Shown here piece after piece: positions 48,063 through 53,334 of a DNA stretch of 64,000 bases. Every line of letters starts with the position of its first letter. Position 1 is the first letter of the stretch. Source of the DNA: an uncultured Pseudomonadota bacterium (GTDB lineage: Bacteria; Pseudomonadota; Gammaproteobacteria; Burkholderiales; SG8-39); assembly GCA_903829815.1 (NCBI GenBank), contig CAIKRR010000014.1, positions 209,024 to 273,023 of the forward strand. Reading direction: 5' to 3'. Under the pieces are notes generated by a model. That model saw nothing but the letters and a program-made list of their open reading frames with translations. It was not told the origin of the DNA and did not search any database. The translations under genes and the position numbers were made by a program.

Positions 48063-48120
48063 TCATCAGACCTGCCGTCCCACGATCAGGTCTGCCGTCC
48101 CCTCATCAGGTCTGCCGCCC
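48063..48120. repeat. 20-bp tandem repeat x3 spanning the GMC oxidoreductase stop codon
   Basis: The units are tcatcagacctgccgtccc(a) / cgatcaggtctgccgtccc(c) / tcatcaggtctgccgccc. The stop (48086..48088) lies in the middle unit. Confidence 0.85.
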
Positions 48121-49813
48121 GCTCCGCAATCATCAGCGTCGGCGAATTGGTATTGCCCGAGCTGATGGTGGGCATCACCGACGCGTCCACCACGCGTAAC
48201 CGTTCGATGCCGCGCACCCGCAACTCGCTGTCGACCACCGCCAGTGGGTCGTCACGACGCCCCATGCGACAACTGCCGACCGGATGAAAGATGGTCGTTC
48301 CGACATCGCCCGCAGCTCGCTCGAGGTCAGCATCACTGACCAGGTGCGGGCCCGGCAGGAACTCCTCGGGGCGGTAGCGCGCGAGGGCACGACTTTCAGT
48401 CACGATCCGCCGCGTGAGCCGCAATGAATCGACGGCAACCCGACGATCTTCCGCCGTCGAGAGGTAGTTGAGCCTGATGGCGGGCGGCTCATGCGCATCG
48501 CTCGATCGCAGGCGCACGCTGCCGCGCGACGTCGGCTGCAGATTGCACACGCTCGCCGTGAACGCGGGGAACCGGTGCAGCGGTTCCCCGAAACGATCGA
48601 GTGACAGGGGCTGCACATGAAACTCGATATTCGGACGCACCTTCGAGGCATCGGACATCGCGAAGGCGCCCAGTTGCGATGGGGCCATGGCAAGCGGGCC
48701 GCTACGCGTCAGCGCATATTGCAATCCCATCCTCGCCTTGCCCCACCACGAATGCACCTGTTCATTGAGCGTCGGCACACCACTCACCTTGAACGCCATG
48801 CGCAGTTGCAGGTGATCCTGCAGATTGGCGCCCACCCCGGGCAGATCGTGCCGCAGATCGACACCGTGCGACTGCAGCACATCGCGCGGTCCGATGCCCG
48901 AGAGCTGCAGGATATGCGGGCTGCCGATGGCGCCGGCCGCAAGTACCGTCTCGGCGCGTGCAGCCGCCGAACGCACCACGCCATCCTGCTCGAAGACAAC
49001 ACCCGTACAGCGCGCCCCATCGAACTGCAGCTTGTGCACCAGGGCACCGGTGAGCACCGTCACATTGCCCCGGGCGATGGCAGGACGCAGGAACGCACGC
49101 GAGGCACTCCAGCGCACGCCGCGTCGCTGGTTCACTTCGAATCGTGCGACGCCGTGGTTGTTGCCGCGATTGAAGTCATCGGTGGCCGGTATGCCGAATT
49201 CGGTGGCTGCCTCGGTGAACGCATCCAGCAGTTTCCAGGAAAGCCTCTGCTTCTCCACGCGCCACCGACCCCCGCTGCCATGAAAGGCAGAGGCACCGCG
49301 CCAGTGGTCCTCGCTGCGCCGAAAGACCGGCAGCACGTTCTCCCACGACCAGCGACTGTCCCCCGTCACCGTCGCCCAGCCGTCGTAGTCCTCAGTCTGG
49401 CCACGCAGGTAGAGCATCGCATTGATCGATGAACAACCGCCCAGCACCCGGCCGCGCGCGTAATTGATCGAACGGCCATTGAGTCCGGCCTCGTCGACGG
49501 TACGAAAGCACCAGTCGGTGCGCGGATTGCCGATGCAATAGATGTAGCCCACCGGAATCTTCACCCAGATCCAGTCATCCGGAGGCCCGGCTTCGAGAAC
49601 GAGCACACGCACGGTCTGATCGGCCCCGAGCCGCTCGGCCATCACGCAACCGGCCGTGCCCGCCCCGATGATGATGTAGTCGAACTCACCGAGCCGCTGT
49701 GCTTCCGAGCCATCGGAAGAAGTATTGACGATCTGCACCACCGCTTGCCCCCAGTCAGACGAATCGACCCCGCTACGGCCCCGACCACTTGAATCGTGTT
49801 GCGCGCCGTTCAA
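48086..49813 (-). CDS. GMC-family FAD oxidoreductase (choline/alcohol dehydrogenase-like)
   Basis: Contains FDYIIIGAGTAGCVMAERL, GGCSSINAMLY and C-terminal PTISSGNTNSPTLMIAERAADL. In-frame GTGs at 49741 and 49738 are plausible shorter starts. Confidence 0.88.
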   Translation of the reverse strand: MNGAQHDSSGRGRSGVDSSDWGQAVVQIVNTSSDGSEAQRLGEFDYIIIGAGTAGCVMAERLGADQTVRVLVLEAGPPDDWIWVKIPVGYIYCIGNPRTDWCFRTVDEAGLNGRSINYARGRVLGGCSSINAMLYLRGQTEDYDGWATVTGDSRWSWENVLPVFRRSEDHWRGASAFHGSGGRWRVEKQRLSWKLLDAFTEAATEFGIPATDDFNRGNNHGVARFEVNQRRGVRWSASRAFLRPAIARGNVTVLTGALVHKLQFDGARCTGVVFEQDGVVRSAAARAETVLAAGAIGSPHILQLSGIGPRDVLQSHGVDLRHDLPGVGANLQDHLQLRMAFKVSGVPTLNEQVHSWWGKARMGLQYALTRSGPLAMAPSQLGAFAMSDASKVRPNIEFHVQPLSLDRFGEPLHRFPAFTASVCNLQPTSRGSVRLRSSDAHEPPAIRLNYLSTAEDRRVAVDSLRLTRRIVTESRALARYRPEEFLPGPHLVSDADLERAAGDVGTTIFHPVGSCRMGRRDDPLAVVDSELRVRGIERLRVVDASVMPTISSGNTNSPTLMIAERAADLMRGRQT

Positions 49814-49859
49814 GCAACCCGGTCACACCGTTGTACACCGCAGGGCACGACCGATGCCG

Positions 49860-49899
49860 ATGTCATCGCATTGCCATCATTCTGTCATCAGCGTGTCTC
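49860..49899 (+). promoter_or_regulatory. Tandem Pho-box-like array (four 7-nt repeats at 11-bp phasing)
   Basis: The sequence is aTGTCAT-cgca-TTGCCAT-catt-CTGTCAT-cagc-GTGTCTC. Matches to the CTGTCAT heptamer are 6/7, 5/7, 7/7 and 4/7. TGCAAT (49910..49915) lies 10 nt downstream as a possible -10, and the ATG is at 49942. Confidence 0.55.
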
Positions 49900-49941
49900 G
49901 CCCGAAAGGTGCAATACACCAACCCTTTCAGGCAAGGCTCG

Positions 49942-50748
49942 ATGAACGCGCGCGACACCCAATCGGAAGGCCTCATCCACCATCGTGCGATCTGGCTCTC
50001 GGACATTCACCTGGGCACCCGCGGCTGCCGCGCCGCCGATCTGCTGGAGTTTCTCCGGGTGCATGATGCCGATGTGATCTACCTGGTCGGCGACATCGTC
50101 GATGGCTGGCAGATCAAGCGCTCGTGGTACTGGCATCAGAGCCACAACGACGTGGTGCAGAAGATTCTGCGCAAGGCGCGCAAGGGTACCCGGGTGATCT
50201 ACGTCCCCGGCAACCACGACGAAGGCCTGCGCCACTTCACCGGCATGGACCTCGGACGCATCGAGATCGAACCCGAAGCCGTCCACACCACGCTCGATGG
50301 GCGTCGCTTGCTGGTCACCCACGGCGATCTCTTCGACGGAGTGATCCAGCGCGCGAAGTGGCTCGCCTATCTGGGCGACACCCTCTACATGCTGGCGCTC
50401 GAACTCAACCGGCACTTCAACCGCCTGCGGCAGCGCATGGGGCTGCCCTACTGGTCGCTCTCGCAGTACCTGAAACATCAGGTGAAAAATGCCGTCAGTT
50501 ACATCAGCGATTTCGAACAGGCCGTCGCCCACGAGGCGAAGCGCCGCGGTTTCGATGGCGTGGTGTGCGGCCATATCCACCAGCCGGCACTGCGCATGAT
50601 CGACGGCGTGCTGTACGCCAATGATGGCGACTGGGTCGAGAGCCTCACTGCGCTGGTTGAGACCACGTGCGGGGAACTGCAGATCGTACGGGCAGCCCCG
50701 ATCACCCATTCAGTGCCCGCAGCACGAGCGGCAGCAATGAGCGCCTGA
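49942..50748 (+). CDS. Calcineurin-like metallophosphoesterase, LpxH-related (PlcP-like phospholipase C candidate)
   Basis: Metallophosphoesterase motifs SDIHLG, GDIVDG, GNHDE, THGD and GHIHQP. GNHDE replaces the GNRD that I recall for bona fide LpxH. ATG at 49942. Confidence 0.8.
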   Translation: MNARDTQSEGLIHHRAIWLSDIHLGTRGCRAADLLEFLRVHDADVIYLVGDIVDGWQIKRSWYWHQSHNDVVQKILRKARKGTRVIYVPGNHDEGLRHFTGMDLGRIEIEPEAVHTTLDGRRLLVTHGDLFDGVIQRAKWLAYLGDTLYMLALELNRHFNRLRQRMGLPYWSLSQYLKHQVKNAVSYISDFEQAVAHEAKRRGFDGVVCGHIHQPALRMIDGVLYANDGDWVESLTALVETTCGELQIVRAAPITHSVPAARAAAMSA

Positions 50749-50813
50749 CTGCGAAGCAGCAAGGCGTGCATGACCGGCAGCGGGCATCAAGGCGCTCAAA
50801 CCGGACAAGCAAA

Positions 50814-50831
50814 GTGTAACGACCCTGTCAC
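50814..50831 (+). promoter_or_regulatory. Single Pho-box-like element upstream of the OlsB-like gene
   Basis: GTGTAAC-gacc-CTGTCAC has 7+4+7 architecture, and the second repeat matches CTGTCA(C/T). TACCAT (50842..50847) lies 10 nt downstream. The element is 58 nt before the ATG at 50889. Confidence 0.35.
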
Positions 50832-50888
50832 AAACCATCCCTACCATCGATCTGTTGGTGATGGATCGGGATCCACGCGAGAAGAGCC

Positions 50889-51731
50889 ATGCGGCACATG
50901 ACGGACCCAGGACTGCAAATGCGCCTGAACGAAAGCGGCACCGACCTGCGGATCGAGTTCGCTGCAACGCGTCAGGATCTGCTCGCAGCGCAGCGTCTGC
51001 GCTACCAGGTGTTTGCCGAGGAATTCGGTGCTGAATTCGATTGCCGGATTCCGGGCATCGACGCTGACATCTTCGATGCCTATTGCGATCATCTGCTGGT
51101 GCGAGATCGTCACAGTCTCGAAGTGGTGGGCACCTATCGCATGTTGCGTCCAGAGCAGGCGCGCGCGCTGGGCTGCTCATACGCCGACAGCGAGTTCGAT
51201 CTGAGCGGGCTTGCCGCCATGCGGCCCTGGATGGCTGAACTCGGTCGTTCCTGCGTTGCGCCGGGCTATCGAACCGGAGCCACCATACGACTGCTCTGGT
51301 CGGGGATCGGGCGCTTCATCCAGTCGCGCGGCTACCGTTACCTCATCGGTTGCGCAAGCGTGTCGACCCGCGATGGTGGCCATGTGGCTGCCAGCCTCTA
51401 CACCGCGCTCATGGGTCAACAGGCCGAGGGCGAAAGCTGGGGGGCGCGCCCTCACAAGCGACTGCCACTGGAAAACCTGCGTTGTGACCTGCCCACTGCC
51501 ACCCCGCCACTCATCAAGGGCTATCTGCGCTGCGGCGGGCGAATCATCGCCGAGCCTGCCTGGGACACCGACTTTGGCACGGCCGACTTCCTGATGATGC
51601 TCGACCTCGCGACGATGGCACCACGCTATGCACGGCACTTTTTCGGCGATGCGCCCCTTGGCTTGCAGGACCCTGCAGCAGTCATCCCGCGCGAGCCCTA
51701 CCTCGGCGAGCTGGAGCCGATCGCCGCATGA
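50889..51731 (+). CDS. GNAT-family N-acyltransferase, OlsB-like (ornithine/amino-acid lipid N-acyltransferase family)
   Basis: Contains AAQRLRYQVFAEEFGAE, CDHLLV, VGTYRML, SEFDL, ELGRSCVAPGYR, LIGCASV and PPLIKGYLRCGG, which together match the OlsB/hemolysin-like Acetyltransf_5 architecture. Alternative ATGs at 50898 and 50919. Confidence 0.78.
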   Translation: MRHMTDPGLQMRLNESGTDLRIEFAATRQDLLAAQRLRYQVFAEEFGAEFDCRIPGIDADIFDAYCDHLLVRDRHSLEVVGTYRMLRPEQARALGCSYADSEFDLSGLAAMRPWMAELGRSCVAPGYRTGATIRLLWSGIGRFIQSRGYRYLIGCASVSTRDGGHVAASLYTALMGQQAEGESWGARPHKRLPLENLRCDLPTATPPLIKGYLRCGGRIIAEPAWDTDFGTADFLMMLDLATMAPRYARHFFGDAPLGLQDPAAVIPREPYLGELEPIAA

Positions 51732-51788
51732 GAGCGGTCCAATGAATTCGGGCAAGCCACTCAAGGCGTTGCCAACCGGAGATCAAGC

Positions 51789-52502
51789 ATGAAACCGAGT
51801 GTGATCATCGTCGAGGATGACGCAGCGATTCGCGACCTGCTGCAATACAGCTTCGAGCGCGCCGGCTTTCGGGTACTACCTGCGGCTTCGGCGGAGCGAG
51901 CCCTCGAACTGTTGAAAGAGCGCCTGCCCACGGTGCTCGTGATCGACTGGATGCTGCCTGCGCTATCGGGTCTTGCGCTGGTGGAGAAGTTGCGTCGAAC
52001 GAGTCGTACCGCCGATCTGCCCCTGCTGATGCTGACCGCACGAGGCAGCGAGCAGGACCGCGTAGGCGGGCTCGAAGCGGGCGCCGACGACTACGTCGTC
52101 AAGCCTTTCAGTCCGAGCGAACTGATCGCACGGGTGAACGCACTGGTCAGGCGCCGCGCCCCTGAATTTGCCGGTGGCAGCATTACGCTGGGCGCACTCG
52201 AACTGGACAGCGATGCACGCACGGCCACCGTCGATGGCACTCGAGTTGCGCTGCGCCAGGTGGAGTTCAGGCTGCTCAAGCTTTTCATGGCACACCCCGA
52301 TCGGGTGTTCACCCGCAACGAACTGCTCGACCGTGTCTGGGGCGAGGACGTGTTCGTCGAGGAACGCACGGTCGATGTGCATATCCGGCGGGTTCGCCTC
52401 GCCCTGGGCAAGCCCTACCGCGACCTCATTTCGACGGTGCGTGGCGGCGGCTACAAGCTGGATCCTGCGATGCTCGAAGCCGCCGAGGCCAGCCTCGCCT
52501 GA
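51789..52502 (+). CDS. OmpR/PhoB-family response regulator (PhoB-like)
   Basis: Receiver domain (VEDD, VIDWMLPALSG, MLTARG, KPF) and winged-helix domain (VWGEDVFVEERTVDVHIRRVRLAL) closely follow the E. coli PhoB pattern. No histidine kinase gene is adjacent. Confidence 0.9.
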   Translation: MKPSVIIVEDDAAIRDLLQYSFERAGFRVLPAASAERALELLKERLPTVLVIDWMLPALSGLALVEKLRRTSRTADLPLLMLTARGSEQDRVGGLEAGADDYVVKPFSPSELIARVNALVRRRAPEFAGGSITLGALELDSDARTATVDGTRVALRQVEFRLLKLFMAHPDRVFTRNELLDRVWGEDVFVEERTVDVHIRRVRLALGKPYRDLISTVRGGGYKLDPAMLEAAEASLA

Positions 52503-52635
52503 AAATTCAAGGCCTGCCCCGCTCGCCAGGAAGCCCCGTCGCGGCGTTCAAAGTCCTCACCTCGATCGATCGGGGCTTGGGCCTGCGACTGATTGAATCC
52601 ATAATAGGGGCCACCCACTAGCGGAGACTGCCCTG

Positions 52636-53334
52636 ATGAATGGAATCGTGGTTCGCAACATACAGCGCGCCGATGCAAGCGTGGTCGAGAGTCTTGGCCG
52701 CTTTGGCGTCGCCACCATCCACGAAGCCCAGGGCCGCAGCGGGCTCATGAAGACCCATATGCGCCCCATCTACGAGGGCGCGCGCACCGTCGGAACGGCA
52801 ATCACGGTGCTCACGCATCCGGGAGACAACTGGATGCTGCATGTCGCCATCGAGCAGATTCGTCCCGGCGACGTCGTCGTGGCCGCCTGCTCGGCCGACA
52901 ACACCGATGGCATGTTCGGCGAATTGCTCGGCACCCAGTTCAAGACACACGGTGCACGCGGCCTGATCCTGGATGCAGGCTGCCGCGACGTCAGCGATCT
53001 GAAGAAGCTTGGCTTTCCGGTGTGGTCGCGTGCCATCTCGGCCAAGGGCACCGTCAAGTCGACGGTCGGCTCGGTAAACATTCCGGTGGTCTGCGCAGGC
53101 GCGCTCGTCAACCCGGGCGACGTGATCATCGCCGACGATGATGGCGTGGTCGTGGTGCCACGTGCCGATGCAGCACGCGTTGCTGCCGAAGCCGAAGCCC
53201 GTGAAGCCAAGGAAGCGATCGCGCGTGGGCACTACGCCGCCGGCGAACTGAGCCTGGACCTGAACAACATGCGCGAAGCCCTCGAGCGCGCCGGCCTGCG
53301 CTACGTCGACGATCTGCCTCACGGGGGTGCCTGA
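52636..53334 (+). CDS. RraA-fold 4-hydroxy-4-methyl-2-oxoglutarate / 4-carboxy-4-hydroxy-2-oxoadipate aldolase-like protein
   Basis: Contains VATIHEAQGR, GELLGTQFKTHGARGLILDAGCRD, and the LigK/GalC-type C-terminal extension. Confidence 0.85.
   Translation: MNGIVVRNIQRADASVVESLGRFGVATIHEAQGRSGLMKTHMRPIYEGARTVGTAITVLTHPGDNWMLHVAIEQIRPGDVVVAACSADNTDGMFGELLGTQFKTHGARGLILDAGCRDVSDLKKLGFPVWSRAISAKGTVKSTVGSVNIPVVCAGALVNPGDVIIADDDGVVVVPRADAARVAAEAEAREAKEAIARGHYAAGELSLDLNNMREALERAGLRYVDDLPHGGA

Follow-up and report, generated by a model that had tools for sequence, protein, structure and literature searches.

Four phased heptamers upstream of a plcP gene form a predicted tandem Pho-box promoter in an uncultured Burkholderiales bacterium

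In the 64,000-nucleotide stretch of DNA analysed here (the window), the intergenic region between two divergent genes, one for a GMC oxidoreductase and one for a metallophosphoesterase, contains a row of short direct repeats, which raises the questions of whether they make up a phosphate-responsive promoter, which of the two genes it would serve and which regulator would occupy it. We re-read the repeats from the sequence and found, as an earlier note on this DNA had described, four heptamers at exact 11-bp phasing on the + strand between positions 49860 and 49899: ATGTCAT (49860-49866), TTGCCAT (49871-49877), CTGTCAT (49882-49888) and GTGTCTC (49893-49899), separated by the spacers cgca, catt and cagc. 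They match the PhoB heptamer CTGTCAT at 6, 5, 7 and 4 of 7 positions, so that heptamers 2 (5/7) and 4 (4/7) are the degenerate members of the row. The array shows the 7+4+7 direct-repeat layout of a Pho box, and by its sequence, genome-wide count, matrix score and conservation it is predicted to consist of two tandem Pho boxes. All four repeats lie on the + strand and point to the metallophosphoesterase gene, in agreement with the orientation given in the same note.

The metallophosphoesterase gene occupies positions 49942-50748 of the + strand and encodes 268 amino acids; a frame check placed its ATG at 49942. The product matched the families PF00149 (Metallophos) and PF12850, which indicates a calcineurin-like fold, and its metal-binding motifs DIH (21), GD (50), GNHD (90) and GHIH (210) are intact. 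It is 63-77% identical to orthologues from Burkholderia, Cupriavidus, Polynucleobacter and other genera. We also considered LpxH as the identity of this protein and rejected it, because the LpxH models gave 38-40 bits against cut-offs of 134 and 190, and a separate true LpxH, scoring 238 bits, is encoded on contig C45. The gene directly 3' of plcP is agt at 82 of 91 loci and btaA-btaB at 6 of 91 (including that of the congener G002), while an olsB-like gene holds this place in the own genome (G000) and in the congener G001; the first two gene orders are the lipid-remodelling arrangements known from the literature, plcP-agt(-dagK) and plcP-btaAB. By its Pfam matches, motifs and synteny, the gene is plcP, and its product is a phosphate-starvation phospholipase C by predicted activity. 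On the other side, the intergenic region is bounded by the divergent gene for the choline-dehydrogenase-like GMC oxidoreductase (48086-49813, - strand; 571 bits, the subfamily cut-off being 605), whose membership of the unit is unsupported. The longest open reading frame of this gene has a TTG start at 49813, and sequence conservation with G001 sets in near 49770.

The own genome, a draft of 4.2 Mb with 64% G+C in which the window corresponds to C14:209024-273023, carries a canonical phoU-phoB-phoR operon on contig C32 and pstSCAB on contig C74. The pstS promoter contains CTGTCACaatcCTGTCAT, and the phoU-phoB-phoR promoter contains CTGTCATgcgcGTGTCAT followed by 10 nt and CATACT. These two boxes are the only 13/14 matches in the genome, and the CTGTCAT consensus is therefore valid for this organism. 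From 12 pstS and phoU boxes of the own genome and its relatives we built an 18-bp matrix, leaving the plcP sites out, and ranked all 8.4 million positions of the own genome with it. The results showed that the pstS box came first, the phoU box second and the phnC promoter third (PhnC being identified by TIGR02315 above its cut-off), followed in fourth place by a box between plcP and the OlsB-like gene (19.19 bits). The fifth place fell to heptamers 2+3 of the plcP array (19.2 bits), so that a matrix scan of the kind that the earlier note had proposed brought out the central pair of the array near the top of the genome. Heptamers 3+4 scored 13.9 bits (rank 31) and heptamers 1+2 scored 2.1 bits. 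A further top intergenic match precedes a gene for a PhoA-like alkaline phosphatase. Since the top intergenic matches include those of phnC, the PhoA-like phosphatase and the olsB-like gene, the motif picks out a coherent Pho regulon, in which the local family matrix favours CTGTaAc as the second half-site. The phnC promoter (C80:19122-19061, - strand) was found to carry six phased heptamers, CCGTCAC, CCGTCAT, GCGTCAT, AGTTCAC, ATGTCAT and GTGTCAT, which means that multi-box arrays stand at several Pho promoters of the own genome. Outside the window, at C14:118232 (- strand), there is a strong intergenic Pho-box-like sequence, TGGTCATgctcCTGTCAT (18.6 bits), about 220 nt upstream of a gene for a 1012-aa membrane protein without known function.

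To evaluate the four heptamers as a unit, we counted matches to four copies of CTGTCAT at 11-bp phasing at each position and on both strands of the whole genome. The plcP array scored 22/28 and is the sole site in the genome at or above 21/28, and hence the best four-heptamer array genome-wide. The runner-up arrays, all at 20/28, were the phoU promoter, the phnC promoter and one site on contig C93, together with an overlapping register of the plcP array itself. In 12 third-order Markov genomes, the mean number of sites with at least 22 matches per simulated genome was 0.08, a rough figure given the 12 runs. Single pairs with at most 3 mismatches are no commoner in the window than chance predicts (4 observed against 4.5 expected); the signal thus comes from the phased clustering of the heptamers, from their position and from their conservation, and from no lone pair.

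The position of the array relative to plcP is that of a PhoB-activated promoter. A gap of 10 nt (gcccgaaagg) separates heptamer 4 from the candidate -10 hexamer TGCAAT (49910-49915, + strand), as the earlier note had stated, and a -35 element is absent; a generic sigma-70 scan upstream of plcP found no full -35/-10 promoter. TGCAAT matches TATAAT at 4 of 6 positions, and the hexamer at this distance is kept in three species of the genus as TGCAAT, TGCAAT and TGAAAT. The 10-nt gap between box and -10 was also found at the pstS promoters of seven relatives, where a TAnACT-type or CAGACT hexamer follows it, and at the own phoU promoter. In E. coli, PhoB-activated promoters have the same geometry, with the box in place of the -35 and about 10 nt to the -10. 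The promoter scan, together with a scan for intrinsic terminators that found none between plcP, the OlsB-like gene and the phoB2 gene behind it, fits a PhoB-dependent promoter. An Rfam scan of positions 49500-52700 at E<=1 gave no match, and hence no known riboswitch or leader.

Another -10 candidate, TACACC (49915-49920), was prompted by a 10-mer, AAAGGTGCAA, that is common to the phoU and plcP promoters. We rejected it, as its distance from the box is 15 nt and its counterparts are TGCATC in G001 and TCCCGT in G002, so that it is unconserved, unlike TGCAAT/TGAAAT. The 10-mer itself follows a Pho box both in the phoU promoter on C32 (about 15767-15758, - strand) and in the plcP promoter of the window (49905-49914), at differing offsets (0 nt and 5 nt, respectively). 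G001 does not keep it, and it is possibly coincidental.

We compared the promoter with those of orthologues, within the genus and beyond it. In G001 (93% protein identity), identity is 89% across the stretch that runs from heptamer 1 to the -10, against 64% for the 90 nt upstream and 87% for the coding sequence. In G002 (77% protein identity), the heptamers are ATGTCAT, GCTTCTT, TTGTCAT and GCGTCGT with the spacers aaaa, gctg and gagc, followed by 10 nt and TGAAAT; this array lies as far from the ATG as the own plcP array does, despite another upstream neighbour gene, the GMC oxidoreductase gene being replaced by phoB2. Further orthologues came from Pandoraea, Cupriavidus, Burkholderia, Paraburkholderia, Ralstonia, Polynucleobacter, Derxia and others. 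Among 91 non-identical orthologue promoters, with at least seven other named Burkholderiales genera represented, a forward array reached at least 18/28 in 62 and at least 20/28 in 35, counts that overstate the independent events because many of the loci belong to close relatives. On the reverse strand of these promoters, 9 arrays reached 18 and none reached 20, and of 455 control windows from the same loci 2 reached 18/28 and none reached 20. The consensus across genera consists of the heptamers nAGTCAT, ccGTCtT, CTGTCAc and CnGTCAt, separated by AAgA, GTnA and GgcA. The array pattern recurs in clearly separate genera, and the conservation check suggested in the earlier note turned out in favour of the heptamers, which orthologous promoters retain next to diverged flanks.

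Downstream of plcP the window contains a second Pho box, GTGTAACgaccCTGTCAC (50814-50831, + strand), the fourth-ranking matrix match mentioned above, with a candidate -10, TACCAT (50842-50847, + strand), 10 nt past it. This box is kept in G001 while its flanks diverge. The earlier note, whose reading of the plcP array is supported here, missed both this second box and the local PhoB-like regulator as a possible binder. Behind the box lies a gene for an OlsB-family GNAT N-acyltransferase (50889-51731, + strand), which matched Pfam Acetyltransf_5 and the NCBIfam OlsB models; the latter gave 158 and 155 bits, under their cut-offs of 320 and 350, and are alphaproteobacterial models. A search of the own genome for btaA, btaB and agt found no btaAB and no close agt, the only match being a GT4 on contig C61 with 31-35% identity. 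With these genes absent, the phosphorus-free lipid of this organism is probably an aminolipid, and the predicted role of the OlsB-like protein is probably in aminolipid synthesis of the ornithine-lipid type.

The PhoB-like regulator, here called PhoB2, is a PhoB paralogue encoded at 51789-52502 (+ strand), 57 nt past the OlsB-like gene and without an adjacent kinase gene. It scored 289.5 bits with TIGR02154 against a cut-off of 296.2, and the canonical PhoB encoded on C32 scored 315 bits. Among 30 relatives searched, PhoB2 was found in only the two congeners, at 77-88% identity; another relative, G009, has two canonical-like PhoB copies with about 50% identity. In every species of the genus phoB2 adjoins plcP, and the arrangement varies: in G002 it is divergent from plcP (L106:567-1298, - strand) and has a box of its own, TCGTCACgctgCTGTCAT (18.5 bits), followed by 10 nt and TACTGT. 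A Pho box thus precedes phoB2 in both arrangements, and phoB2 is predicted to be Pho-controlled in both. In its recognition helix, RTVDVHIRRVRLAL, and its wing, TVRGGGY, PhoB2 is very like the E. coli PhoB of 1GXP, and it retains the phospho-acceptor context DWMLP. The canonical PhoB of the own genome is equally similar to E. coli PhoB in helix and wing. Because the helix pattern RTVDVH.RR.R and the wing TVRG.GY are common to PhoB and PhoB2, their sequences cannot tell which of the two binds the array.

These results strongly suggest that the 40-bp array is a tandem Pho-box pair forming a PhoB-dependent promoter of class-II type for plcP, a reading that we hold to be very probable. What we infer for the plcP cluster is that a regulator binds, that expression depends on phosphate, where transcripts begin and which reactions the enzymes catalyse. 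Under phosphate starvation, PhoR would phosphorylate PhoB, as in the E. coli model of PhoB, and phosphorylated PhoB-type regulators would bind head-to-tail with one monomer per heptamer. Heptamers 3-4 would sit in place of the missing -35 and recruit sigma-70 RNA polymerase to TGCAAT, heptamers 1-2 would add cooperative affinity, and the plcP transcript would begin about 20 nt upstream of the ATG (49942). The register of the formally best-scoring pair, 2+3, differs from that of the pair 3+4, which is needed at the -35, so that we infer, rather than read from the scores, the placement of two dimers on 1-2 and 3-4. PlcP would then cleave phospholipids into diacylglycerol and phosphate-containing head groups, and the second Pho-box promoter (50814-50847) would drive the OlsB-like synthase gene and phoB2, which are apparently co-transcribed. 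The cluster as a whole would thereby swap phospholipids for phosphorus-free lipids.

Other explanations of the array were weighed against this reading. That it is a chance cluster of TGTCA-like words without a regulatory role might be argued from the two weak heptamers among the four and from the chance rate of single pairs in the window, but we give almost no credence to it: the array is the best in the genome where about 0.08 would be expected, its position, orientation and 10-nt gap to a conserved -10 are all correct, and it was kept within the genus and across genera while the flanks diverged, so that conservation in independent lineages has already been seen. It also seems quite improbable that a different OmpR-family regulator answers to a non-phosphate signal here, or that the array acts mainly on the divergent GMC oxidoreductase gene. 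OmpR-family regulators generally bind direct repeats at about 10-11-bp phasing, and the intergenic region is shared, no less than 47 bp separating the array from the outermost start that the GMC gene could have; however, the heptamer consensus is that of the own pstS, phoU, phnC and phoA-like promoters, the repeats are oriented to plcP and stand at the canonical distance from its -10, and G002 keeps the array although the GMC gene is not its neighbour.

The identity of the binding protein deserves more attention. The array could be occupied mainly or only by the orphan PhoB2 and not by canonical PhoB, such that PhoB would turn on the olsB-like gene and phoB2 first, and PhoB2 would then drive plcP; we consider this rather unlikely, and we regard as similarly doubtful the feed-forward or positive-feedback loop that would then delay or commit lipid remodelling. 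In its favour, the paralogue is restricted to the genus and always lies beside plcP though the arrangement differs, its gene stands behind a Pho box in both arrangements, and the DWMLP context, the helix and the wing are all retained. Yet the plcP promoters of many genera without PhoB2 bear the same four-heptamer array, so canonical PhoB suffices there, and the helix and wing pattern shared by both proteins gives no sequence reason for a separate specificity. Since genera without PhoB2 keep the same array, we take canonical PhoB as sufficient for the predicted tandem Pho-box promoter of plcP and PhoB2 as a possible co-regulator.

The pstS promoter of E. coli carries two tandem Pho boxes. The plcP promoter resembles it in its 7-nt direct repeats at 11-bp phasing with four heptamers in a row, and in a proximal box that ends 10 nt before the -10, lacks a -35 and is oriented as the gene. 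It differs from it in its Burkholderiales host (64% G+C), in the target gene, in the greater degeneracy of heptamers 2 and 4, and in the CTGTaAc second half-site of the local family matrix.

Pho boxes before plcP have been described in marine bacteria (PMC4796936) and in P. aeruginosa (PMC8528852, where the consensus CTGTCATNNNNCTGTCAT is quoted), PhoB activation of plcP has been stated (PMC13700237), and the plcP-agt-dagK genes of B. cenocepacia (BCAL2364-66) are induced by phosphate depletion and needed for glycolipid formation (PMC13691135). Predicted Pho boxes upstream of olsB have been reported for Burkholderia sensu lato (PMC7814305). Pho boxes before plcP and olsB are thus already described, and tandem boxes are classical. 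The closest known plcP systems are SMc00171 of S. meliloti, the marine plcP-agt genes, PA3219-PA3218 of P. aeruginosa and BCAL2364-66 of B. cenocepacia (PMC4796936, PMC8528852, PMC13691135, PMC13700237); our link to BCAL2364 is one of species and operon structure (PMC13691135). The locus studied here shares with the marine and P. aeruginosa systems a predicted Pho box before a gene for a PlcP-type metallophosphoesterase, and the plcP genes of B. cenocepacia and S. meliloti are reported to be induced by PhoB or by phosphate depletion. As in the known systems, plcP is clustered with a gene for a phosphorus-free lipid. Unlike in them, the partner encodes an OlsB-like acyltransferase and has its own Pho box, in place of agt or btaAB, a PhoB paralogue belongs to the cluster, and the own genome is without btaAB or a close agt. 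The olsB genes of Burkholderia sensu lato (PMC7814305) offer a second comparison: here too the host is a betaproteobacterium and its OlsB-family gene follows a Pho box, a likeness consistent with aminolipid synthesis induced by phosphate limitation. In contrast to those genes, the olsB-like gene lies directly 3' of plcP and upstream of phoB2, and its product scores under the curated OlsB cut-offs, which belong to alphaproteobacterial models.

The analysis provides a confident regulatory annotation for an uncultured or little-studied betaproteobacterium. With plcP and the olsB-like gene in the Pho regulon, the organism is predicted to remodel its membrane lipids as one component of the response to phosphate starvation. 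Across Burkholderiales, plcP promoters usually take the form of a four-heptamer array, a finding that adds a little to the literature and could help to direct work on promoters in Burkholderia, a genus in which plcP is important for survival inside cells (PMC13691135). Real curiosity attaches to one element only, the orphan PhoB paralogue that accompanies plcP. A bolder and rather unlikely possibility is that canonical PhoB would induce PhoB2 and that PhoB2, once PhoR or some other donor had phosphorylated it, would then be required for occupancy of heptamers 2 and 4, the weak ones of the plcP promoter. If true, such a feed-forward PhoB2 gate would mean that phospholipid destruction is committed only under sustained starvation.
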